A stretch of 31,282 bases of DNA, from NCBI GenBank assembly GCA_041586955.1, contig JBFGZE010000030.1:1-31282 (forward strand). The letters are read 5' to 3'. The notes under the pieces are model-generated. The model was given only the letters and a program-made list of their open reading frames with translations. It searched no databases and had not been told where the DNA came from. Shown piece by piece: positions 4,109 through 24,520 of this stretch; the stretch's first letter is position 1, and every line of letters begins with the position of its first letter. The position numbers and the translations under genes are program-made. The stretch is from Bacteriovoracaceae bacterium (GTDB lineage: Bacteria > Bdellovibrionota > Bacteriovoracia > Bacteriovoracales > Bacteriovoracaceae).

Positions 4109-5281
4109 ATGAATACTTCATTTTTTCGCTATCTCGTTCAATTTATCTTTAAGGCCGGCTCTCGCCAAAGATTATTATTTTTGGCCTTGGCCGGACTTTT
4201 TTTAAGCTCCATGGCGCTTATCGTTTTACAATCTGCGATGGGAGGGCTCCAGACAAAAGTTATTGGTCGGTCAAAAACGGCCATGGGCTCCGGCACCATC
4301 TTATTGGAGTCGATGGAGGAAACTCAGGTTCTCAAAATCCTAAAGGCCTTGCGCCATAAATTTCCAGATAATATTATTTTACCTGAGTATGAAATAGAAT
4401 TACTTTTGGGCAAGGGGAAGTTTCTTACGCCTGTCGTTGCTCATGGTATTGACCCAAAGGGCATTAGGCCCCCCTTATTAAAAGATCTACAATTTAATGA
4501 GGTGGTACTAACACGCACGATTCGCGAAAACCTCTCTCTTTGGCAGGATCAGATTCCTATTCGTCTTATTAGCCCGGGCCATGTGGATTCTCTTTTTGAA
4601 GATATTCCCCGGGTCATAGGCCTCAAGGTTGATGATTTTGCCCTCTCTCATGTCAAGGAAGTGGATCAATTTCATATATGGGTTGCCTTAACAAAAATAC
4701 AAAATCTTATTCGTAAAAGAGATCTCAATCGTATTCGCTTTTTTGGTGATCTCGACCGTGACGAAGTTTTGGTTAGCATGAAAGAACTTAATATCCCTGG
4801 TGAGTTAGTCATGTGGGAGGATATTAACCAATCGTTAGTTTGGGCCCTGGGCCTTGAATCCCATGTCATGATTTTTCTCTTTACTGCTATGACCTGCTTA
4901 GTTTCTTTGTGTATTACCTCTGGCCTCTTTATTTTCTTCTCTAAAATAAAAAAAGACCTGACGTCTTTTTGGATTTTAGGAATGGGGAAAGAGGAAATTG
5001 GTCGGCATACATCGCGACTTGTTCTTTTATTATCATTTGCTGCTATTGTTTTAGGTCTTTTTTCTGGAATTGGTCTTTTGGCCTTCTTGGAGCTGACTGG
5101 AATTAATATTATGTCCAGTCGCTTTGTCGACCGAAATGTAGGTTTACATTTGACCGCCTCTAATCTCGCCATTAGTTTTTTTGTCCCACTCGCTATTAGT
5201 TGGATATTCTCGGCCTTATCATTGAAAATTTTTAAAAAAGAAACCAATTATTTAGACTATGTTCGCAGTGTTGGACAATAA
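4109..5281 (+). CDS. LolC/LolE-like (FtsX/MacB family) ABC transporter permease
   Basis: One N-terminal TM helix (LIVLQSAMGGLQ), large periplasmic region, WEDINQSLVWALGLE motif, then three C-terminal TM helices; 390 aa. Confidence 0.75.
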   Translation: MNTSFFRYLVQFIFKAGSRQRLLFLALAGLFLSSMALIVLQSAMGGLQTKVIGRSKTAMGSGTILLESMEETQVLKILKALRHKFPDNIILPEYEIELLLGKGKFLTPVVAHGIDPKGIRPPLLKDLQFNEVVLTRTIRENLSLWQDQIPIRLISPGHVDSLFEDIPRVIGLKVDDFALSHVKEVDQFHIWVALTKIQNLIRKRDLNRIRFFGDLDRDEVLVSMKELNIPGELVMWEDINQSLVWALGLESHVMIFLFTAMTCLVSLCITSGLFIFFSKIKKDLTSFWILGMGKEEIGRHTSRLVLLLSFAAIVLGLFSGIGLLAFLELTGINIMSSRFVDRNVGLHLTASNLAISFFVPLAISWIFSALSLKIFKKETNYLDYVRSVGQ

Positions 5282-5439
5282 GGTTCTATCCATTTGACCG
5301 AATCAAAATTACTTAGATCAAGCAAGAAAATGTAGTGTTTTATTCAGTTATTATTATGCCCTTTAGGTCTAGTCAGTAAGGAATTTCCAACCTTTCTTTA
5401 ATTCTTTCTTTCTTATATTATTATACTAGAGGAAATTAT

Positions 5440-6522
5440 ATGAAAATTAATAATAAGGGCTTTTCCCTTATCAGTGTCATGGTTGCAGCTGGCCTATTGG
5501 GAGGGCTTTCATTAGGTGTTATGCAGCTGATAAAAAATATGTCAAACACTCAAACTTTCTCCCAGTCGAGTACTGATTATATCGATTTATCTCAGGAGGT
5601 ATCATTATTAGTGTCGTCCCCTGAAGATTGTACCGCATCTTTTAAAGGAGTTTCTTTTAAAGGGAGTAATATCCAGGGAACTCCTGTCGATGTTGAACTT
5701 TGGAGCGCAGATCAGGATGGAAATCGTTCAAGGTTGAGGTTTTCAGGTAATTCAGATTTTGGAAAGTTACAAATAGATGCCATTCGGCTTTCCATGCCAG
5801 ATTATACTGGTGGGGATTTTCCACAAGGATCTGGTCAGTCTTTTAATGCTCTCTTAGAAATTGTGGGTAAGAAACAAATTACATCAAACCAAGATCGCGA
5901 TATAAAGGCGATTTCTAAATCATTCAAATTATATTTTGACACGGATAGCGGAGGAAATAGTACGATCACAGGGTGTACTGCAGCCTCTTCACCTAGTTCC
6001 GGGGGGGATGTTGTTTTAGACTCATGCTCCTGGTCTGGTTATGTTAATAATTATGATGGCCCTGTTAATTATACTTGCCCTGGGGATAAGGTTATATCCG
6101 GCGTTAGAAGTGTGCATTCTAACGGAACTGAAGATAGGCGTTTTGAATATAAATGTTGCCGAGCTTCTGTCAGTGGAACTGCATTAGTAAAAAAATACTG
6201 CTTATTTTCTGGAGATGTTAATAACAAGGACAACCTTGTTAATTATACTTGCTCACCTCCACTTGTTTATGGTGGTGTGCAAAGCAACCATGATAGTGGA
6301 ACTGAAGACCGATCTTTTTCATTTCAGTGTTGTGACATGAAACTAACCGAATCGGCAGAAATAAAAGACTGTGAGATTTCTGGTTATGTGAATATTTTCG
6401 ATGGCGCAGTTGATTATACCTGCCCTATCAATAAAATATTAGTTGGGGAGATGAGCTATCACGACGGCGGATTTGAAGATCGCAGATTTCGATATAAGTG
6501 CTGTTCACTGTTGGCCCGCTAG
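5440..6522 (+). CDS. Type IV pilin-like protein (class III signal peptide) fused to three dermatopontin-like repeats
   Basis: MKINNKG/FSLISVMVAAGLLGGLSLG prepilin N-terminus; C-terminal 3 x 45-aa Cys-rich repeats with SxHxxGxEDRxFx[YF]xCC; GAGGA SD upstream. Confidence 0.85.
   Translation: MKINNKGFSLISVMVAAGLLGGLSLGVMQLIKNMSNTQTFSQSSTDYIDLSQEVSLLVSSPEDCTASFKGVSFKGSNIQGTPVDVELWSADQDGNRSRLRFSGNSDFGKLQIDAIRLSMPDYTGGDFPQGSGQSFNALLEIVGKKQITSNQDRDIKAISKSFKLYFDTDSGGNSTITGCTAASSPSSGGDVVLDSCSWSGYVNNYDGPVNYTCPGDKVISGVRSVHSNGTEDRRFEYKCCRASVSGTALVKKYCLFSGDVNNKDNLVNYTCSPPLVYGGVQSNHDSGTEDRSFSFQCCDMKLTESAEIKDCEISGYVNIFDGAVDYTCPINKILVGEMSYHDGGFEDRRFRYKCCSLLAR
6025..6504 (+). repeat. Three tandem protein-level repeats (6025-6159, 6199-6333, 6370-6504)
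   Basis: Each unit reads C-x2-SG-x-VN-x2-D-x2-V-x-YTC...G-x2-S-x-H-x2-G-x-EDR-x-F-x3-CC, at aa 196-240, 254-298 and 311-355. Confidence 0.9.
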
Positions 6523-6577
6523 CTGAAGTTAAATGGCCATAATCACACCTTTGCTAAAGAGCGGTCGTATGGCCTGG

Positions 6578-6607
6578 CCACACCATTATGATGTCATAAT
6601 GGTGTGG
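6578..6607. repeat. Perfect 14-bp inverted repeat between convergent genes (hairpin, possible terminator or stabiliser)
   Basis: CCACACCATTATGA-TG-TCATAATGGTGTGG; no following U-tract on either strand. Confidence 0.7.
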
Positions 6608-6618
6608 ATAAAAAATGG

Positions 6619-8922
6619 TTAAAGTTTTAAGTTTTTAAGCGCAGCAAAGGCATTGTTTTTTAATTGCTTCGTTTCCTGACGAGGTGCTTTGGGGGCCTTC
6701 TTATTGGCACCACCGCGAGTCCCGGTGACAGATCCAGAATCACCTTTTTTTAAACTCATGGCAATGCGTGAGCGGTCAAGATCAACTTCGATTACACGTG
6801 CTTTGACCTCTTGCCCCACTTTAAGAACTTCAAGGGGGTTGTCCACAAAACGATCGGCCATTTCAGAAACATGAACTAAACCATTTTCTTTAATTCCGAT
6901 ATCGATGAAGGCACCAAATTTAGTAATATTGGTAACAATGCCGGTATACCAAGTTCCCGGTTCAAGGTCACTCATTTTGCGGATGTCTTTGCGGAACTCT
7001 GTTGACTGAAACTCTGTCCGTGGATCTTGGCCAGGAGTTTTTAGAGACTTGACGATATCAGCATGTGTGAATTCGCCCAATTCATGGGCCAAGTCTTTAT
7101 CTTTTTCTAATTGCGTAATGAAATCCGTCTCTGCCGCCAATTGCTTTAAGGTACAATTTTTTTGGGTAACCCATTTTTCAAGAAGAGGGTATTTCTCTGG
7201 GTGAATAAAAGTGCTATCCAGAGGATTTTCACCATTATAAATACGCATGAAGCCCGCAGATTGTTCAAATATTTTTTGACTAAAACGGGGGACATCCATT
7301 AATTCGCTACGGGATTTAAAACCACCAATCTTTTCACGAGTCTTAACGATATTTTCAGCTAAGGTCGGGCCGACACCTGAAATATAACTGAGAAGAGGAG
7401 CTGAGGCGGTATTTAAATCAACACCGACAAAGTTGACACAATTTTCAACAATATGGTTGAGGTTTTTTTTCAATTTGGCCTGGTTAACATCGTGCTGGTA
7501 CTGACCGACACCAATACTTTTAGGATCAATTTTTACCAATTCCGCAAGAGGATCTTGAAAGCGACGAGCGATAGAAATGGCCCCACGGACGGTAGCATCT
7601 TTGTTGGGGAATTCTTTAGCGGCAATAGGTGACGCCGAGTATATACTGGCGCCGGATTCATTGACCAAGGTGGCCTTGACTTCACCTTTTTTAATGGCCG
7701 GAATATGATCTTCTAAAAAGTGAAGGGTTTCGCGACCAAAGGTCCCATTTCCCACAGCAATATGCTTAACATTATAATGTTCGATCAAGCGCTCAATGAT
7801 ACGAGCGGATCCTTGAATATCTCGTTGAGGTTCATGGGGATAAATAACAGTATCAAAAAGAAATTTACCAGTATGATCAACGACTGCTGTTTTACAGCCA
7901 GTGCGGACTCCTGGGTCCAGGGCCAATACTGCCTTCGCTCCTAAATAAGGTTGTAATAAAAGACTTTTTAAATTGATGCCAAAGACATCAATCGCTGATT
8001 CATCGGAAGTCTTCTTAAGTTCTGATTTTAGCTCAAGATCAAGTGAACTATGGATATAAAGAGTAAAGGCCTTTTTGGCACAGGCCTCAAGCCAATCAAG
8101 TAGTGGGTGCTTATCATCATCAAAATAAACAGAGCGAATGAGGCCCGTTCCACTTTCTATAGGAAATTGAACTTCAACTTTAAGAACCTTTAGGGTCATC
8201 CCACGGCGCATCGCCAGGAAGCGGTGGCCATTTCTGGGGTCGAGAAGTTCAGATGCCTTTTGCTCAAATTCAAAATAGTCTTTGAATTTTTCAAAATCTT
8301 TAATTTCTTCGGCCTTGGGCCTTTTACTAGAGACGACGACTGCGTCTCTCCAATAATCTTTTCTGAGGGTGTCTTTAATTTCTGGATCGTGGGCAAACGT
8401 TTCAATCAAGATAGCAAAAGCACCATCAAGGGCATCCTTTATGGTCTTAATTTTCTTATCGGGATTGATCAGAGTTTCGGCCATTTTTTGCATCTCTTCG
8501 TGCTGACCTTCACCTTTGAGAATTGCATCCGCTAACGGCCCAAGACCGGCTTCTTTGGCCAACATTCCTTTTGTTTTTTTCTTCGCTTTAAAAGGAGCAT
8601 AGATATCTTCTAATTGAACCAGTGTTTCAGCTTTAAGAATGGCCTGTTTAATTTCCGGTGTCATCATTTCTTGCTTGGTGATCGCTTCAAGAATATAGGC
8701 ACGTCGTTTTTCTCTTTCGAGATAGGCCTCGTAGGTGTCAATAATATTACGAATTTGTTCCTCGTTAAGGTCCCCCGTTTTTTCCTTACGGTAGCGGGTA
8801 ATGAAGGGCACAGTACAATCTTCCATATAAGTAAGTTGGAGGACGGCAGCGACGGATTGAGCTTTAATTTCCGTGGCCTGTGTGGCAAAAATGGCCCCTT
8901 CTGGGTTAATCGTTTTAGACAT
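6619..8922 (-). CDS. tex: Tex family RNA-binding transcriptional accessory protein (YqgF-like, HhH and S1 domains)
   Basis: TVPFITRYRKEKTG, LDPGVRTGCK, ESGASIYSAS, DPKSIGVGQYQHD, C-terminal S1 domain; likely start ATG 8922 (MSKTIN) with CAGGAG SD. Confidence 0.95.
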   Translation of the reverse strand: MSKTINPEGAIFATQATEIKAQSVAAVLQLTYMEDCTVPFITRYRKEKTGDLNEEQIRNIIDTYEAYLEREKRRAYILEAITKQEMMTPEIKQAILKAETLVQLEDIYAPFKAKKKTKGMLAKEAGLGPLADAILKGEGQHEEMQKMAETLINPDKKIKTIKDALDGAFAILIETFAHDPEIKDTLRKDYWRDAVVVSSKRPKAEEIKDFEKFKDYFEFEQKASELLDPRNGHRFLAMRRGMTLKVLKVEVQFPIESGTGLIRSVYFDDDKHPLLDWLEACAKKAFTLYIHSSLDLELKSELKKTSDESAIDVFGINLKSLLLQPYLGAKAVLALDPGVRTGCKTAVVDHTGKFLFDTVIYPHEPQRDIQGSARIIERLIEHYNVKHIAVGNGTFGRETLHFLEDHIPAIKKGEVKATLVNESGASIYSASPIAAKEFPNKDATVRGAISIARRFQDPLAELVKIDPKSIGVGQYQHDVNQAKLKKNLNHIVENCVNFVGVDLNTASAPLLSYISGVGPTLAENIVKTREKIGGFKSRSELMDVPRFSQKIFEQSAGFMRIYNGENPLDSTFIHPEKYPLLEKWVTQKNCTLKQLAAETDFITQLEKDKDLAHELGEFTHADIVKSLKTPGQDPRTEFQSTEFRKDIRKMSDLEPGTWYTGIVTNITKFGAFIDIGIKENGLVHVSEMADRFVDNPLEVLKVGQEVKARVIEVDLDRSRIAMSLKKGDSGSVTGTRGGANKKAPKAPRQETKQLKNNAFAALKNLKL

Positions 8923-8974
8923 CTGTGTGTGACTCCTGTAAAAAATAATCGAACCACAATGGTAAGAGAAAGAT

Positions 8975-10015
8975 ATGAAATGGCAAGAAGCGAATGTGAA
9001 ATATGAGGTGGATATCCTGGTTTTGGGAGCGGGTATTTTAGGATGCTCCGTGGCAAATGCCTGCTCTGAGTTCTTATCTCCAGACAAGATCTTAATCATC
9101 AATGGAAAACGTTTGGCCGCTCCGTGCTCATTAAGCTCGACAGGTATCATTTGTAAAATGGGGATTAAGACCGGTATTAGTCCACTGGGTGATCTCCTTT
9201 CTCGTGCCTATGATTGGACCGTTCATAGTGATGAATTTACCCATCATGGAATTGAACCCTCGCGCTTTTTCACATTAGCACCTGCTGAAGATAAAGGCAG
9301 AGTTGAGACTTTGACTCGCCGTTATGGATCTCTTCATAATTGCTCTTTGGGCCAGCACCAAGACTTTTTAGCGCATGAAGAAGAGGCCTTTTTAGTTGAC
9401 CCCAAGAGGTTAATCAAACATTTAGCGCAGGATATCCTAACTATAGATGATACCGCCTATGAAGTGCGACGAGTGGATGATTATGTGGAAGTGGTCTTGG
9501 CCTCTGGCGCCATGGTCCGTAGCCGACTTTTATTTGTCGCCATGGGCGCCTATCAAGATCTATGGCAGATTTTTAAAGCTGATCTCAAGGCCGGGAATGA
9601 TCAAAAGACTTGCAAGGTAGTTCCCGGTAGTTTTCTTCTGGGCAAAACAAACCTAGAGTTTCTTGGCCGGCAAAGTTTTGTCCTGCAGATGCCCTATGGC
9701 CAGCTGATTAAACGCGCTGATGGGACGACCATGATCGGCTCCACTCATATTAACGAGGGTCCTTATCTATCAGGGAAGGCCGAGCTCAAAATGATGAAAG
9801 ACCGATTTGAAGATTTATTTCAATTGTCCTTAGGTACGATGGCGATTGAATCTGGGCAGCGGGCCAAGGCACCGAAACGGAGACCGGTTTTGTACGCCCT
9901 CGATAATGAAGAGAAAGTTTGGACCGCCAAAGGTCTTTATAAAAATGGTTGGACCTTGGGCCCATTATTTGGCCATGAATGGGCGATTAAGGCCCGACAC
10001 ATTCTCCAGGGCTAA
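8975..10015 (+). CDS. FAD-dependent oxidoreductase, DAO/glycine oxidase-like family
   Basis: Rossmann motif ILVLGAGILG, IGST, and C-terminal KGLYKNGWTLGP resembling the ThiO/DadA GHxRNGxxxAP motif. Confidence 0.75.
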   Translation: MKWQEANVKYEVDILVLGAGILGCSVANACSEFLSPDKILIINGKRLAAPCSLSSTGIICKMGIKTGISPLGDLLSRAYDWTVHSDEFTHHGIEPSRFFTLAPAEDKGRVETLTRRYGSLHNCSLGQHQDFLAHEEEAFLVDPKRLIKHLAQDILTIDDTAYEVRRVDDYVEVVLASGAMVRSRLLFVAMGAYQDLWQIFKADLKAGNDQKTCKVVPGSFLLGKTNLEFLGRQSFVLQMPYGQLIKRADGTTMIGSTHINEGPYLSGKAELKMMKDRFEDLFQLSLGTMAIESGQRAKAPKRRPVLYALDNEEKVWTAKGLYKNGWTLGPLFGHEWAIKARHILQG

Positions 10016-14637: not shown

Positions 14638-14736
14638 AACTTTCACTTGTATTGCGTCATTAGTTGTCGATACGACGGCCACTCCCTAATGTCCCATTAA
14701 CGTGATCAGCGGATAGCGATGAAGGGGAAAAATAAA

Positions 14737-15612
14737 ATGAATAGCAAGTTAAATGGATTATTATTATTGGGGTTGTTGGCGGCACAAGTCACGTCAGTCG
14801 TAGCAAAAGAAAAAGTAGTTTATGGACAAGATAATAGAGTATTCTATGCTAATTCCAAAAATGAAGTTTATCAATCTTGGGCGCGTTCGACTGCGGTTCA
14901 AATTAAAAACAGTCGTTTTGAAAAAAATAAAAGTGGTCATTATGAATTACAAGATTTTCGTCTCAGTGATTTTGTGGGCCTTTGTGAGGGCGCAAAATAT
15001 ACGAAAGAGTTGGCAGTCGGCAATTGCAGTGGTTTTCTCGTTGCGCCCGACCTTTTAGTGACCGCGGGACATTGCGTACCTAGTCAGTATCAATGCGATA
15101 ATACTATTTGGGCCTTTGATTACCGCTCAGACCTATTAAAAAAATCACTGACATTACCAAAGAAGAATGTTTATAACTGTAAAAAGATTATTAAAACAGA
15201 ACTTAATCAATTTACAAGAATGGATTATGCGGTGATTCAATTGGATCGTCCTGTTGCTGGACGCACACCTTTAGAGTATAGACAAGAGGGAGCGGTTCGT
15301 TTATTTGATCCATTAGTTCTTATTGGCCACCCTTCTGGGTTACCCAGCATGATCGCCGATGGGGCCTTTGTTCGCGGTAATAATAACCTCACATTTTTCA
15401 CAGCAACGACTGATTCCTTTGGGGGGAACTCTGGTAGTCCAGTAATTAACGACAATACTGGTGAAGTTGAGGGGATTCTGGTTCGTGGGGAGAGAGACTA
15501 TTATTTTGATCCACAATCGTCTTGTTATCGTGTTAAACGTTGCGAAAGCGACGCCTGCCGCGGAGAAGATGTAACCCGTATTACAAATGTTTCGGAAATT
15601 TACAAAAAATAA
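14737..15612 (+). CDS. Secreted trypsin-like (S1) serine protease, paralog 1
   Basis: Signal peptide; catalytic triad TAGHC / DYA / GGNSGSP; start either 14719 or 14737. Confidence 0.92.
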   Translation: MNSKLNGLLLLGLLAAQVTSVVAKEKVVYGQDNRVFYANSKNEVYQSWARSTAVQIKNSRFEKNKSGHYELQDFRLSDFVGLCEGAKYTKELAVGNCSGFLVAPDLLVTAGHCVPSQYQCDNTIWAFDYRSDLLKKSLTLPKKNVYNCKKIIKTELNQFTRMDYAVIQLDRPVAGRTPLEYRQEGAVRLFDPLVLIGHPSGLPSMIADGAFVRGNNNLTFFTATTDSFGGNSGSPVINDNTGEVEGILVRGERDYYFDPQSSCYRVKRCESDACRGEDVTRITNVSEIYKK

Positions 15613-16175: not shown

Positions 16176-16919
16176 TTGAACACTTTCTGGAGTCATTTTA
16201 TCAAAGCGATCGCCCTTATCATTTTGCTCAGTAATTTTTTTCCTCAAATTGCTTATGCCAAGGACAGAGATAGTAGACTGATCTCAATTAAAGACTATAG
16301 AAAATTAGATCAACTCAGTGGAGATAATTTAAAATCGGCCATCCGATTGATATTATCAGAAAATTATAATTCTCATGGGTATAAAAAGGCCAAAAAAATC
16401 ATTTATACAAAACTTGATAATTCATACGGAGAAGTTTGCTGCGTTTACGGAAATAAATGCCTTAGAACTAATAAAGTTCCCCGTCATACCATTATGAATG
16501 TCGAACATACTTGGCCTCAATCAAAAGGGGCCAAAGGTATTGCGGCCAGTGACCTTCATCATCTTTTTCCAACGGCCAGTAAATTAAACTCTAAACGATC
16601 AAGTTTTCCCTTTTGTGATGTTGATAAAGTAAAATGGGAAGGAGAACTCAGTAAATTTGGAAAAGATGACAGAGGTGTTTCGTGTTTTGAGCCTCCTCAA
16701 GAACATAAAGGCAATGTGGCCCGGGCCTTATTTTATTTTTCCATCCGCTATCGATATAAAATTGAAAAAAATGAAGAAGAGACTCTTAGGCGTTGGCATG
16801 AGGAAGACCCTGTTGACTTTAAAGAGATTGAAAGAAATCAAAAAGTATTTAATTATCAAAGAAATTCAAATATTTTTATCGAATACCCTGAGATTGTGGA
16901 TAGGGTAGATAATTTTTAA
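16176..16919 (+). CDS. Secreted endonuclease I family nuclease
   Basis: Signal peptide; NVEHTWPQS, SDLHHLFPT..NSKRS, KGNVARALFYFSIRY, WHEEDPV..E.ERN motifs; TTG start. Confidence 0.9.
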   Translation: MNTFWSHFIKAIALIILLSNFFPQIAYAKDRDSRLISIKDYRKLDQLSGDNLKSAIRLILSENYNSHGYKKAKKIIYTKLDNSYGEVCCVYGNKCLRTNKVPRHTIMNVEHTWPQSKGAKGIAASDLHHLFPTASKLNSKRSSFPFCDVDKVKWEGELSKFGKDDRGVSCFEPPQEHKGNVARALFYFSIRYRYKIEKNEEETLRRWHEEDPVDFKEIERNQKVFNYQRNSNIFIEYPEIVDRVDNF

Positions 16920-18206: not shown

Positions 18207-19097
18207 ATGAAATTAAGGACGATGATGACCGCTGGGTTGATGTGTCTTCTGGCCTTTTCAGCTCACACCAAGGAAAAGGTGGTTTACGGCGTTGACGATA
18301 GACTTGATTTATTTGAGACAATTAATCCTCTACATGCCCGCCTCGCAGCTTCAACTGCCGCAATGATACCCAACTATAAACTAGAGGCAAATCTCAATGA
18401 TGGAAAAGTCGGTATTAAAGGCTCAGTTTTAAAGAGTCGTGGGATTTGTGAAGATGCTCGCTTTGCTCAACAAATGACTTCAGCAAGTTGCTCAGGCTTT
18501 CTTGTGGCACCCGATCTTATCATAACCGCAGGGCATTGTATTCGCAGTGAAGGTGATTGTTCACAAAATTCATGGGTTTTTGATTTCGCCAAAATGACTG
18601 CTGATCAAAGTGAGACAGAATTTGCTGTTGACGAAAGTAAAGTTTATCGTTGTAAAGAAATTGTCGCTCGTGATCTATCTCGCTTTTCCAAAAATGATTT
18701 TGCACTTATCCGCCTCGAGAGGCCTGTCGCTGACCGCACACCTTTGACGGTTAGAACAGAAGGTCGTATCGAAGATCAAACTCCTCTCGTTATTATCGGT
18801 CACCCTACGGGGCTCCCGGTTAAAATTGCAGATGGGGCCTTTGTTCGTCGTAACGATAATGATGTGTTTTTTGTTGCTAACACTGATTCTTTCGGAGGTA
18901 ACTCTGGCAGTGCTGTTTTTAACTCTGATACTGGAGTGGTTGAAGGCATTCTTGTCCGCGGTGAACAAGACTATGTTTATGATGCTGGTCTTGGTTGTCG
19001 AGTCCCTCGAGTCTGTGACATGGACAGTTGTCGTGGTGAAGATATCACCCGCATTACCAATGTTAAGGCATTGATGGCCATATTAAAAAATCAATAG
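18207..19097 (+). CDS. Secreted trypsin-like (S1) serine protease, paralog 2
   Basis: Signal peptide; TAGHC / DFA / GGNSGSA triad; AAGGA SD; collinear with 14737-15612. Confidence 0.93.
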   Translation: MKLRTMMTAGLMCLLAFSAHTKEKVVYGVDDRLDLFETINPLHARLAASTAAMIPNYKLEANLNDGKVGIKGSVLKSRGICEDARFAQQMTSASCSGFLVAPDLIITAGHCIRSEGDCSQNSWVFDFAKMTADQSETEFAVDESKVYRCKEIVARDLSRFSKNDFALIRLERPVADRTPLTVRTEGRIEDQTPLVIIGHPTGLPVKIADGAFVRRNDNDVFFVANTDSFGGNSGSAVFNSDTGVVEGILVRGEQDYVYDAGLGCRVPRVCDMDSCRGEDITRITNVKALMAILKNQ

Positions 19098-21553: not shown

Positions 21554-21686
21554 AGACGGATCTCCTTGAAGCAAAGATAGTAAAAGTTAGAGAATAGATC
21601 TTTATTATTTTATAGGAAATTAGAGATAATAGCATGTCACATTTTGAAACTTGACTAAAAAACTATTTTTTGCGCACGGAGGCCAT

Positions 21687-23024
21687 ATGAAAACAAGTTT
21701 ATTAGTAGCCCTAATTATCTTTTGGAGTTGCAGTTCACAGGCATCTCTCATTGCTATTATTGATTCCGGTACAGATATGAAGCACGATGCTATCAAGGAG
21801 TCGGCCTGGAATAATTCTGTCGATATTCCGATGAATGATCGGGATGAGGATTTTAATGGGTATCAAGATGATTTTTACGGTTGGAACTTTGCTGAGTCAA
21901 ATAGCCAGGTCATCGATTATAATTATCTTGGTACTTTGAATGACAAGATCCGTCGCTTTTTTGATATCCAAACCACCATTTTAATGGGGACAGCATCACG
22001 CGGTGATGTTGATTGGGCACGTGGGCAATTAAAGGACCCCGCCTTTATTAAACGTATTTCTATTTATGGAAATTTTATGCACGGGACACATGTCGCTGGT
22101 ATTGCCTTAAAGCAATCTCCTGAGAGTCAGATTCTTGCGGCCAAGATTATTCCCACTGAGGCAAAATTACCTGGTCAAAAGTTAAACTCTGAAAAGGGTC
22201 TTGGAACTTTTCTTTTAAAGAAAGGACTTGGCGTCTTGGCCGGCCAACAAATGAAGTTAATGGCCGAAGTGGCGGCTTATATTGATGGGCATAAGGCCCT
22301 TATCGCGAATGGTAGCTTTGGTACCGGTTACCCCCAATCTAAAAAAATTGTCGAAACCTTGGCAAAAACTTTTCTTCGTCGGGAGTTAACGAAAGAGGAA
22401 AGTCACGAGGTGACATTACATTTTTTGGAGACTCTTTTAAAAAAGGGACATAAAATGGTCGAAGCGGCTCCTAATACTCTTTTTGTCTTCGCCGCTGGTA
22501 ATGATGGCCTGAATAATGATCAATTTCCTGTGTCGCCAACAAATATTGATGCCCCCAATGTCATCTCTGTGGCGGCAACAGCCGGTATGAGAGGATTGGC
22601 CCCCTTCAGTAATTATGGCCTTAAGGTTCATGTCGCCGCCCCTGGCGTTGGAATTCAATCAACTGTTCCTGGCAATGAATATTTGGCGGTTAGTGGGACA
22701 TCTCAAGCGGCGCCCTATGTTGCTGGCGTTGCAGCTTCGATCCGTGATTTAAATGACCAATTAACACCTGCGGAAGTCAAGGCCCTTCTCATTAAGACTG
22801 TGGATCATAGAGACGATCTCAATGGTAAGATTCTCTCTGGTGGAATTATTAATGCTGATCGGGCCAAAGAAGCCGCTCGCTTAAGCCGTCAAATGACCTT
22901 GGAGCAGGCCATTGAAGTGGCAAAAAATGATATCGCAGATCGTCCTCAAATTGGTTATAAGTCAAATCATGAACTCGTGAATATGCCTGGTATGGTATTA
23001 CCCCTACCAAACCCATTTAGATAA
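21687..23024 (+). CDS. Secreted S8 subtilisin-like serine protease, copy 1
   Basis: IAIIDSG / HGTHVAG / AAGN / GTSQAAP; ATG 21687 after GGAGG SD; signal peptide. Confidence 0.95.
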   Translation: MKTSLLVALIIFWSCSSQASLIAIIDSGTDMKHDAIKESAWNNSVDIPMNDRDEDFNGYQDDFYGWNFAESNSQVIDYNYLGTLNDKIRRFFDIQTTILMGTASRGDVDWARGQLKDPAFIKRISIYGNFMHGTHVAGIALKQSPESQILAAKIIPTEAKLPGQKLNSEKGLGTFLLKKGLGVLAGQQMKLMAEVAAYIDGHKALIANGSFGTGYPQSKKIVETLAKTFLRRELTKEESHEVTLHFLETLLKKGHKMVEAAPNTLFVFAAGNDGLNNDQFPVSPTNIDAPNVISVAATAGMRGLAPFSNYGLKVHVAAPGVGIQSTVPGNEYLAVSGTSQAAPYVAGVAASIRDLNDQLTPAEVKALLIKTVDHRDDLNGKILSGGIINADRAKEAARLSRQMTLEQAIEVAKNDIADRPQIGYKSNHELVNMPGMVLPLPNPFR

Positions 23025-23050
23025 GAGCTTAGCTTTTAACGAAGTTCTTT

Positions 23051-23078
23051 GGGAGGTCTTTGGACCTCCCTTTTTTTT
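23051..23078 (+). terminator. Rho-independent terminator
   Basis: GGGAGGTC-tttg-GACCTCCC followed by T8. Confidence 0.9.
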
Positions 23079-23173
23079 CTGAAAAAAAATAATTGAAATC
23101 CATAAATAGCTAGATAAAAATTTTGAGTTTTGTTAATGTGAGGCAATTTTTATTTATCATTCAGGGAGGATGT

Positions 23174-24520
23174 ATGAAAAAGTTACTCTTAATTGCTTTT
23201 CTGAGTCTCATTAGTGTTTACGCCGACGCATCTCTCATTAGTATTATTGATTCTGGTGTGGATATGCTTCATGAATCTATTAAAGACGCTGCCTGGACTA
23301 ATTCAAAAGAAATTCCGATGAATCGAAAGGACGACGATCGAAATGGTTATAAAGATGATTACTTCGGGTGGAATTTTGTTAGAAATAATAATCAAGTGAT
23401 TGATTATCGTTACCTTGGTCTCCTTGATAAAGATACCCGTCGCTTTTTTGAAATTCAAACAAAAGAAATCCGTGATGAAGCGACCCAAGAAGAAAAAGAT
23501 TGGGTAAAAACGATGATGAAAAAGAAAGTATTTTTAAAGCGCCTGATCACCTATGCTAATTTTATGCATGGGACTCATGTCGCTGGGATTGCGGCGAAAG
23601 GTAACCCTGGAGTCAAAGTGATGGCGGTAAAAGTCATCCCAACTGAGATTCGTTTTTTGAATCATCTTATCAACGATTTAAAAAATGTTGAAGATAAGGG
23701 CCTTATTACTTTTTTATTAAAGCAGGCCTTGAGCTTTGTGGCCAAACTCCAAGTGAAGTCTATGGTCAAAGTGGCCAAGTATATCGATGGCCATCAAGTT
23801 AAAATTGCCAACGCTAGTTTTGCTATTCCTTATAATATGACTGTCACTCGTATGAAAAGATTATTAAAGGGTTTTTTGAGTGAAAGTGATATCAAGGACG
23901 TGGTGGCCGATTATATTAATACTCTCGGACGGGAAGGAGTAGAGATCGTGAAGGCCGCACCCAATACTCTTTTTGTTTTTGCTGCAGGCAATGAATCCCT
24001 TGATAATAGTCAGCTACCAACTTTTCCCGCCAATATCAAAGCGCCGAATGTTATAGTTGTGGGTGCCTCGGTTGGACTAGGAAAATTGGCCAAGTTTAGT
24101 AATTTTGGCCGAGAGGTTCATCTTGCTGCTCCGGGAGTGGGGATTGAATCTTCTGTTCCTGGCAATCAATACCTAGCACTTAGTGGTACCTCGCAGGCAG
24201 CACCTTATGTTGCTGGTATCGCCGGTAGTATGGCCCTTCTCAATCCCGCCTTAACACCTGAGCAATTAAAAACCATTATTGTCGACACCGTTGATAAGGT
24301 GGAAGGCCTTGTGGGTCAAGTGTCATCTGAAGGTGTTATTAACGGAGAGCGGGCGAAGGAAGCGGCTCGCTTAAGTCAGCAAACTGGGGTGCAGCCGGCC
24401 ATTGCCATTGCCATTGATGCGATACCAGATAAGTTGGCAGAGGATTATCTCTTAGCTCCTGCTATTGACGAGGAGAATTTATGGGTTAACCCACTTCCTA
24501 ATCCGTTTCCAATTAAATAA
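23174..24520 (+). CDS. Secreted S8 subtilisin-like serine protease, copy 2
   Basis: ISIIDSG / HGTHVAG / AAGN / GTSQAAP; ATG 23174 after GGAGG SD; collinear with copy 1. Confidence 0.95.
   Translation: MKKLLLIAFLSLISVYADASLISIIDSGVDMLHESIKDAAWTNSKEIPMNRKDDDRNGYKDDYFGWNFVRNNNQVIDYRYLGLLDKDTRRFFEIQTKEIRDEATQEEKDWVKTMMKKKVFLKRLITYANFMHGTHVAGIAAKGNPGVKVMAVKVIPTEIRFLNHLINDLKNVEDKGLITFLLKQALSFVAKLQVKSMVKVAKYIDGHQVKIANASFAIPYNMTVTRMKRLLKGFLSESDIKDVVADYINTLGREGVEIVKAAPNTLFVFAAGNESLDNSQLPTFPANIKAPNVIVVGASVGLGKLAKFSNFGREVHLAAPGVGIESSVPGNQYLALSGTSQAAPYVAGIAGSMALLNPALTPEQLKTIIVDTVDKVEGLVGQVSSEGVINGERAKEAARLSQQTGVQPAIAIAIDAIPDKLAEDYLLAPAIDEENLWVNPLPNPFPIK

Follow-up and report, generated by a model that had tools for sequence, protein, structure and literature searches.

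A gene on contig JBFGZE010000030.1 of a Bacteriovoracaceae bacterium (GenBank assembly GCA_041586955.1) encodes a protein in which a type IV pilin-like module is joined by a Ser/Gly-rich linker to three repeats of the dermatopontin (DERM) family. We consider it fairly probable that this pilin-DERM protein is a modular member of the type IV pilin family whose DERM part is a ligand-binding knob, carried on a linker of ten residues and displayed at or near the tip of a pilus. The window, i.e., the whole stretch of DNA that was analysed, is the entire contig (C30, 31,282 bp), and the gene is an open reading frame (ORF), open throughout from 5440 to 6522 on the + strand, of 360 amino acids (aa). 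The protein has this architecture and both family memberships, modules are swapped among its relatives, and its genome holds type IV filament machinery. The arrangement of a pilin module, a Ser/Gly linker and a three-repeat DERM had been read from the letters in a first-pass annotation, and it has since been borne out by Pfam, by a high-confidence structural model, by fold matches and by relatives. The parts of the protein are as follows.

5440..5460, + strand: class III (prepilin-type) leader MKINNKG, aa 1-7; cleavage after Gly7 predicted from the sequence
5461..5643, + strand: pilin alpha-1 helix, aa 8-68; hydrophobic N-terminal half FSLISVMVAAGLLGGLSLGVMQL, Ser12 at mature position +5, Cys64 near the C-terminal end
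5644..5982, + strand: pilin head, aa 69-181; antiparallel beta-sheet (strands by DSSP at 72-181) ending with the conserved STITGC (Cys179)
5983..6012, + strand: Ser/Gly-rich linker, aa 182-191 (AASSPSSGG and flanks); the module junction, from the sequence
6025..6159, + strand: DERM repeat 1, aa 196-240; from regular expression, self-alignment and Pfam DERM; four strands in the model
6199..6333, + strand: DERM repeat 2, aa 254-298; from the same three sources; four strands in the model
6370..6504, + strand: DERM repeat 3, aa 311-355; from the same three sources; Cys328 and Cys354 kept

The N-terminus, MKINNKG followed by FSLISVMVAAGLLGGLSLGVMQL, has a short basic leader that ends in Gly and precedes a hydrophobic stretch of ~20 residues. 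All of the sequence features that had first been listed, namely the prepilin-like leader, Cys64 and Cys179, the linker AASSPSSGG (itself at aa 181-189) and three four-Cys repeats of 45 aa with their signature, are present. The Cys residues lie at positions 64, 179, 196, 213, 239, 240, 254, 271, 297, 298, 311, 328, 354 and 355, and each repeat conforms to the pattern C-x3-SG-x-VN-x2-D-x2-V-x-YTC...S-x-H...EDR-x-F...CC, with the pairs of repeats sharing 25, 28 and 21 identities in 49 aligned columns. The assignment of the repeats to Pfam DERM (PF14704) held comfortably in a profile search, the match reaching 155.4 bits (E 1.7e-45, in 2 stretches that span all three repeats), far above the gathering cut-off of 28.3 bits; in six-frame genome scans the domain scored 89.9 and 81.2 bits. 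The whole protein matched DERM, N_methyl and ET alone in Pfam at E <= 10, and a sequence search of the PDB with it gave no chain at E <= 10. In the excerpted text of Raynaud et al. 2021 (PMC8179133), a modular pilin is one in which a short linker joins the N-terminal pilin module to a domain with no specific tie to pilus biology, and on the evidence of Pfam, the model and the break between its modules the pilin-DERM protein falls within that definition.

The Pilin Module and Its Scaffold Family

The full-length AlphaFold model, built from a 46-row alignment (predicted local distance difference test (pLDDT) 92.8, predicted template modelling score (pTM) 0.66), has helices at 10-59 and 61-68 (pLDDT ~90 or more), a beta-sheet up to residue 181, the linker and three groups of four strands; the ten-residue block that bears the linker has a mean pLDDT of 72. 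The N-terminal half is thus predicted to have the pilin "lollipop" fold, a long helix lying on an antiparallel sheet. When the model was compared with 48,161 PDB chains using VIA-align, pilins and pseudopilins made up 19 of the top 50 rows, aligned over residues 8-182 at weak scores (Z 3.1-4.4, a range that VIA-align itself calls common), and among them were GspK (Z 4.4), FimA, the PAO1 pilin, S. sanguinis PilA/PilB, ComZ and Thermus PilA4/5.

Among 1.84 billion representative proteins searched by sequence, 1,568 matched at E <= 1e-3, and 59 of the proteins collected in this analysis match a profile of the N-domain. At position +5, where the pilin-DERM protein has Ser12 and lacks the canonical Glu, these relatives have Glu (37 proteins), Ser (8), Gln (5), Gly (4) and Asn, Thr or Ala (1 each), 2 being unreadable fragments. 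The N_methyl (PF07963) gathering cut-off of 21.2 bits was passed by 13 of the 46 relatives scanned, and two relatives are already named in NCBI, one as "type II secretion system protein" and the other as [quoted passage not shown]. In addition, Gly7, Phe8 and Leu10 are invariant in seven of seven aligned fusion proteins. The relatives that have Glu5 or pass the N_methyl cut-off, together with the predicted fold, back the pilin nature of the N-domain, which belongs as a divergent member to a true family of type IV pilin-like proteins. The pilin-DERM protein itself is an atypical pilin, probably of the cap type rather than the standard one.

Comparison of the sequences indicates that on this Bacteriovoracaceae scaffold the C-terminal modules have been swapped exactly after Cys179. 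P0003 is 62% identical to the pilin-DERM protein over aa 3-179 and, after Cys179 (...STITGC), continues into an unrelated Cys-rich domain, while P0172, from the related genome G322, is 33% identical over aa 3-186 and then continues into a collagen-IV NC1 domain (Pfam C4, 188 bits, two stretches). P0012 likewise carries a Peptidase_S74 domain, and many unnamed Cys-rich modules occupy the C-terminus of the same scaffold. The first-pass annotation had suggested a survey for the same pilin N-domain with other C-terminal domains, and this was rewarded with DERM, NC1, Peptidase_S74, Hint, Gly_rich_2 and Cys-rich modules. An N-domain tree of 53 rows (a quick IQ-TREE run with branches tested by the SH-like approximate likelihood-ratio test (SH-aLRT) only, 6 of the 59 rows with fewer than 150 profile positions having been excluded) requires 3 gains or losses of DERM for its ten DERM-bearing rows, at least 2 of which are forced by starred branches. 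In that tree the pilin-DERM protein groups with P0002 and with P0003, which has no DERM, and is divided from the other eight DERM fusions by a branch of 99*. The DERM-tipped protein is probably one interchangeable sticky tip among many on a common pilin scaffold.

The scaffold is widespread in the family: 79 of 121 family genomes, the source genome counted, have an N-domain match at E <= 1e-6, many of these matches spanning only the first ~80 residues, in open frames of ~100-1,000 aa. Pfam C4 was found in 2 of the 121. The source genome has at least 7 further pilin-like genes of ~335-420 aa (one on contig C27, a tandem trio on C39, one on C64 and two on C157), whose match to the pilin-DERM protein is confined to the first ~70 residues of the N-domain.

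Several of these genes have features of their own. The three tandem paralogues (C39:12157-15665, -; 395, 395 and 337 aa) end in Cys-rich regions that match nothing in Pfam and lie directly upstream of a gene for a 1,042-aa PAS/GAF hybrid histidine kinase, and the C27 paralogue adjoins a kinase gene and two response-regulator genes. The C64 paralogue (C64:1104-2369, +; L006:1104-2366 in the extracted locus) ends in a Peptidase_S74 intramolecular-chaperone domain (49 bits), a kind of module known from tail fibres and MAT fibres. The gene for P0172 (L039:1486-2766, +, on contig C45 of G322) has Ser at +5, and in G022 (L067:1492-2780, -) a frameshift or an assembly error divides a scaffold-NC1 gene into two ORFs, one of 231 aa for the pilin and one of 171 aa for C4. 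Elsewhere the scaffold is joined to a Hint/intein-like domain in P0051 (38.6 bits), to Gly_rich_2 in P0103 (36.6 bits) and, in P0006, to a sub-threshold match to an H-type lectin (H_lectin, 20 bits against a cut-off of 24).

The DERM Module

Modelled by itself, the DERM part (pLDDT 96.5, pTM 0.90) has 12 strands, four per repeat, and 18 of the 48,161 chains matched it at Z >= 2. The best matches were Vip3A 540-707 (Z 7.1 over 115 aa at 3.4 Å) and Vip3Cb1 (Z 6.7), followed by the three-lobed C-terminal domain of PCSK9 (Z 3.4 and 3.1), which was also recurrent in Foldseek at probabilities of 0.8-0.9 and TM-scores of 0.4-0.5; the remainder include jacalin-type lectins (WGA16, Calsepa, ZG16, SALT, Mevo, Heltuba) and VMO-I at Z 2-3. 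Based on the model, the module would be a pseudo-threefold, beta-prism-like knob that is possibly lectin-like. In other proteins DERM co-occurs with Ricin_B, F5/8-C and CBM60.

The columns for the signature S, H, E, D, R and N residues and for the Cys residues are at least 90% conserved in a 45-row alignment, and where Cys residues have been lost from it they have been lost in pairs: 196 with 240, 254 with 298, and 328 with 354. Such paired loss suggests that each repeat has two disulfides, one outer and one inner, the putative pairs being 196-240, 213-239, 254-298, 271-297, 311-355 and 328-354. Cys328 and Cys354 of the third repeat were kept in 14 of 15 rows of the pilin-bearing clade versus 5 and 4, respectively, of the 30 other rows.

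That clade was defined in a DERM tree of 96 rows, which excludes rows with fewer than 130 profile positions as well as P0004 and P0160, and in which all 11 pilin-fused DERMs fall within a single clade of 17 rows (SH-aLRT 95), along with two lipoprotein-like proteins and four others. The DERM of the pilin-DERM protein is nearest to that of P0002, then to those of the lipoprotein-like P0029 and P0071, and of P0021 and P0037. In the other proteins of the tree DERM is often accompanied by Astacin, MACPF, Sushi, ShK, Ricin_B or F5/8-C domains; their rows have no taxonomic labels, so that the tree gives neither a root nor a direction for any transfer. The repeat-domain phylogeny that had been called for thus gave half of an answer: it set the pilin-borne DERMs apart in one clade, but could not sort animal from bacterial rows. 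The description of the module as an "animal-type domain" was an overstatement in view of the separate clade, the retained Cys pair of the third repeat and a gene G+C equal to that of the genome.

The resemblance to the dermatopontin family is nevertheless plain, in that the pilin-DERM protein has three tandem repeats of ~45-50 aa, the motif EDR-x-[FYW], a conserved Cys framework and a score about five-fold the Pfam cut-off. It differs from known members of that family in having a pilin in place of a secretory signal peptide, in keeping all 12 Cys, four per repeat, and in belonging to a separate clade. The Limulus haemagglutinin/aggregation factor, to which the repeats had been likened, is one that we take to be a member of the dermatopontin family.

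Pilins are one of several carriers of the module. P0029, P0071 and P0104 (376-598 aa) have a DERM of the same clade at the C-terminus and N-termini resembling lipoprotein signals (...SYQNC, ...FQNC), from which it follows that the knob is also used on an anchor that is not a pilin. In P0010 (495 aa), a CBM60 domain and short Cys-containing motifs in tandem are followed at the very C-terminus by a single DERM repeat, and there is 67% identity to part of the pilin-DERM protein; P0010 may be a fibre whose chains could together rebuild a DERM knob.

Distribution and Novelty of the Fusion

The pilin-DERM gene is the only DERM gene in its genome. DERM was found in 2 of 61 genomes of close relatives and, over the cut-off, in 3 of 401 genomes of the phylum, the source genome being counted in each. 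Fusions of a prepilin-like N-terminus to a DERM above the cut-off number at least 10 (P0001, P0002, the G035 protein, P0015, P0016, P0018, P0021, P0037, P0088 and P0127); P0161 is a further fusion by a profile built in this analysis, and P0114 has a degenerate, sub-threshold DERM (24 bits). Since P0021, P0037 and P0127 match the pilin-DERM N-domain in the helix only, DERM has been joined to more than one type of pilin head. A contig scan using one narrow pattern, which says little on wider distribution, found a single locus, in the same metagenome-assembled genome as G035. The sequencing runs that contain the pilin-DERM sequence are 4 DNA runs, all marine metagenomes of one study and one of them possibly the source, with no RNA run listed. 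The architecture is therefore recurrent in environmental data and rare in genomes.

No paper combining "dermatopontin" and "pilin" was found in a literature search, a search for "PF14704" returned a snail-genome paper only, and none of the papers listed by a search on topics concerning Bdellovibrio and like organisms and pili mentions "dermatopontin". To that extent the view that the fusion was undescribed stands for the papers found; the fusion is not unique, however, there being at least ten such proteins, two of them already in NCBI under generic names. The text excerpted from Raynaud et al. 2021 (PMC8179133) gives 264 modular-pilin architectures, including IPR012902-IPR030392 (S74, 29 proteins), an entry that an S74 module on a pilin N-terminus matches, and its Dataset S1 has no architecture with DERM (IPR026645/PF14704), collagen-IV NC1 or an H-type lectin. 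That census was based on the InterPro criterion IPR012902, and it would probably miss the pilin-DERM protein because N_methyl is sub-threshold there. Candidate horizontal transfer of dermatopontin-domain genes has been discussed for a choanoflagellate, in the part of that report drawn on here (PMC7971027). The pilin-DERM protein, which is solidly documented in sequence and model, adds to the known class of modular pilins, and we found no paper on this fusion.

The Locus and the Filament Machinery

The source genome is a draft of 3.46 Mb with a G+C of 39% and a completeness of 88%. The G+C of the pilin-DERM gene is 0.375-0.41 versus 0.392 for the genome, and there is no compositional sign of recent transfer. 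An AT-rich gap of 158 nt divides the gene from the one upstream, which ends at 5281, and a scan of 5200-6700 detected neither a convincing + strand promoter just upstream nor a terminator past the stop. Two further features delimit the gene.

5429..5433, + strand: Shine-Dalgarno sequence GAGGA, with the ATG 6 nt downstream, read directly from the sequence
6520..6522, + strand: stop codon of the pilin-DERM gene, which is convergent with tex (6619-9150, -)

The gene is flanked by tex and, on its other side, by genes for a thiolase, a FadB-like protein and an FtsX-like permease. The nearest genome-borne relatives of the scaffold, those of G019 and G035, are in unrelated neighbourhoods, so no conserved locus was found. 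Among the neighbours, the gene at 4109-5281 (+) encodes a 390-aa membrane protein with a sub-threshold FtsX match (19 bits against 25.5); it begins right where the fadB-like gene stops (4107/4109), which makes co-transcription with the genes of fatty-acid oxidation probable, rather than with the pilin gene. In tex, the first ~75 aa of the listed 843-aa ORF extend the N-terminus and match no family; as the Tex_N domain begins only at residue 90, an internal Met is probably the true start. The window also includes two genes for trypsin-like peptidases, a pair of neighbouring subtilase genes and one gene for Endonuclease I (14719-15612, 18207-19097, 21651-24520 and 16176-16919), and the secreted-hydrolase load of the contig is typical for predatory bacteria.

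Machinery for type IV filaments is encoded elsewhere in the genome. Contig C6 has a cluster with the order pilB-pilT-pilC-pilA...pilD-pilM, its PilD-like peptidase having both A24_N_bact and Peptidase_A24 domains, and a second, shorter A24 peptidase is encoded on C72. A gspD-E-F-G operon on C20 has three further pseudopilin genes and is followed by a 473-aa ORF with no family match, and two more minor-pilin genes are on C76. The latter (C76:5912-11821, i.e., L035:2912-8821, -) encode N_methyl-type proteins of 158 and 345 aa and are flanked by ORFs of 475 and 1,009 aa with no Pfam match, which could be PilY1-like tip partners.

Proposed Display on a Filament and the Alternatives

Taken together with this machinery, the sequence and model suggest the following route. 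The hydrophobic N-terminus would insert the protein into the inner membrane, the PilD-type prepilin peptidase of the genome would cut after Gly7, and oxidative folding in the periplasm would form up to seven disulfides. By its alpha-1 helix the protein would then enter a type IV filament, to cap or prime it at the tip or close to it, a position proposed on account of the missing Glu5 and the bulky C-terminal module. From there the DERM knob would bind a surface ligand, most likely a glycan or a repetitive surface structure on prey cells or particles, and retraction of the pilus would pull the cell onto its target.

A number of observations weigh against this reading, and they concern both halves of the protein. 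On the pilin side, N_methyl scored 14.7 bits on the protein (E 0.022) and 18.7 bits at the gene in the six-frame genome scan, both below the cut-off, and the best NCBIfam match, T4P_ComGE, was likewise sub-threshold (14.7 bits against 49). The claim of a prepilin leader thus stood as regards the Gly-Phe junction and the hydrophobic helix, but not as regards the N_methyl profile or Glu5, and because Glu5 is the normal driver of subunit docking, a protein without it might not polymerise at all. The pilin fold matches do not exceed Z 4.4 and the full model had no Foldseek match in the PDB at E <= 1e-3; the structural comparison that had been proposed therefore gave a confident model of a pilin with a knob and weak VIA-align pilin rows, but nothing in Foldseek at that threshold. 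As for DERM, no fold match reaches the VIA-align guide value of Z 8, the best being Z 7.1, Foldseek with the DERM-only model found nothing in the PDB at E <= 1e-3, and no DERM chain was found there by sequence or profile (alignment A1 gave two chance-level rows at E 0.2-0.3). The geometry between the two domains is uncertain in the model (pTM 0.66). The gene is an orphan outside any pilus operon, the host filament may be either a T4aP (type IVa pilus) or that of a T2SS (type II secretion system), and a folded knob of 170 aa would need to pass through a secretin. Finally, we know of no ligand for any bacterial DERM.

In one alternative the protein is pilin-like and is never polymerised, its helix, cleaved or not, serving as an anchor in the inner membrane and its DERM acting in the periplasm or on the cell body, e.g., as a sensor or in binding the envelope. 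The missing Glu5, the sub-threshold N_methyl score and the distance of the orphan gene from the pilus genes are all in keeping with such an anchor, as are the histidine kinases and response regulators encoded beside the C39 and C27 paralogues, and the lipoprotein-like carriers P0029, P0071 and P0104 imply that DERM has no need of a filament. However, the Glu5 of 37 of 59 relatives and the retention of a whole pilin head would be hard to explain for a mere anchor, the cap pilins of known filaments likewise have no Glu5 (PMC10191384), and the hypervariable, outward-facing modules of the scaffold (S74, lectin-like, NC1) resemble parts for surface recognition. We consider the anchor unlikely.

The other question is which filament the protein would join. 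Like the GspK/PilK/PilX caps, the pilin-DERM protein has no Glu at +5, is larger than a major pilin and has a predicted position at the top of the filament (PMC10191384), so one may ask if it belongs to a T2SS pseudopilus or to some other type IV filament rather than to a retractile T4a pilus, as a GspK-like cap whose extra domain docks a substrate or the secretin. The genome does have a full gspD-E-F-G operon with three pseudopilin genes and the 473-aa ORF, the top fold match of the pilin class is the GspK of a GspK-I-J complex (Z 4.4), GspK-type caps lack Glu5 (PMC10191384) and a relative is named a type II secretion system protein. Yet the GspK row is tied with many type IV pilus pilins, within 1 Z unit, the NCBI name is a generic label of N_methyl proteins, and the many paralogues per genome with differing modules are unlike a single conserved secretion cap. 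GspK itself has an alpha-domain in its sheet, and the pilin-DERM protein has none by AlphaFold and DSSP, has no T2SSK match in Pfam at E <= 10, has its module at the C-terminus and is encoded outside any minor-pilin operon. Identity as a GspK-type pseudopilin was rejected for want of the T2SSK match and of the inserted helical domain, and a role in the T2SS or another such filament seems to us very unlikely.

The Ligand and Comparable Systems

The nearest precedents for a tip-borne knob of this kind are the S. sanguinis modular pilins PilB (vWA) and PilC (lectin), each of which, like the pilin-DERM protein, has an adhesive domain grafted through a short linker onto its pilin module and proposed to be exposed at the tip, as given in the excerpts of PMC8179133. 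The host of the pilin-DERM protein differs from theirs in being a diderm of predatory type, and the protein itself in having no Glu5 and a sub-threshold N_methyl score.

Two tip systems of predators are comparable in their logic. The MAT (mosaic adhesive trimeric) fibres of Bdellovibrio bacteriovorus resemble the Bacteriovoracaceae pilins in forming a multi-gene repertoire, in a predator, with a conserved carrier and diversified adhesive tips, and the portion of Caulton et al. 2024 (PMC10769870) used here describes tips that are S74, C-type-lectin, TNF-like and novel beta-sandwich domains, some of which bind lipopolysaccharide; S74 tips are common to the MAT fibres and to the pilin scaffold. 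The carriers are very different, the MAT proteins not being pilins but trimeric beta-helix fibres of ~1,000 aa that have a signal peptide and a beta-rich, conserved N-domain (same excerpts), whereas in the pilin-DERM protein the carrier is a monomeric pilin module and the knob is pseudo-threefold within one chain. The Kil (Tad) pilus of Myxococcus xanthus is likewise a predator's pilus that has alternative tips whose variable domains are matched to prey, according to the excerpted text of Herrou et al. 2025 (PMC12075869); Kil is of the Tad/Flp type and its tips are complexes of several proteins encoded in operons, while the Bacteriovoracaceae proteins are single-chain pilins of the T4a/T2SS style, with a Gly-Phe junction, that are scattered over the genome. 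By analogy to the MAT and Kil tips, recognition of prey surfaces is a reasonable guess for the DERM tip, and given the extracellular-matrix flavour of DERM and NC1, a eukaryotic surface or a particle might also be the target.

A pilus adhesin with a target other than prey, be it eukaryotic matrix or surfaces (animal, protist or algal), marine particles, or other pili and cells in aggregation, would accord with the fact that animal DERM proteins are proteins of the extracellular matrix and of cell adhesion, as stated in the parts of PMC7971027 and PMC4133350 seen here. A collagen-IV NC1 domain on a sister scaffold in a related genome (188 bits) points the same way. Bacteriovoracaceae are known, though, as predators of bacteria, and the pilin-borne DERMs are a clade of their own with a Cys pattern unlike that of the other DERMs sampled. 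A target other than prey is, in our estimation, rather unlikely; it differs from the reading preferred here in the ligand alone, the mechanism being common to both.

Implications for Predatory Bacteriovoracaceae

How bacterial predators recognise their targets is still poorly understood. Beside the MAT fibres and the Tad-pilus tips, the pilins described here would be a third and simpler solution, in marine Bacteriovoracaceae, in which single-chain pilins take plug-in knobs at a precise module boundary (after Cys179). The compact, disulfide-stabilised bacterial DERM could also give the first experimental structure for the dermatopontin family.

The interest of the pilin-DERM protein lies in the wider pattern to which it belongs, a pilin scaffold that swaps its cassettes and has "animal" matrix domains among them, and the occurrence of DERM and collagen-IV NC1 as cargo of bacterial pilin-like proteins bears on the origin of those domains. 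In its most far-reaching form, which we put forward as a possible though doubtful proposal, the Bacteriovoracaceae would own a repertoire of pilus tips in which the scaffold, often without Glu5, acts as the filament cap and, just past its final Cys, recombines with various recognition knobs, among them DERM, collagen-IV NC1 and H-type-lectin-like modules, which are regarded as hallmarks of the animal extracellular matrix. The tips would set the range of prey or hosts and would record an exchange of extracellular-matrix domains with the ancestors of animals, in one direction or the other. If that were true, the bacterial DERM, symmetric and with 12 Cys, could be proposed as the ancestral state of the domain.

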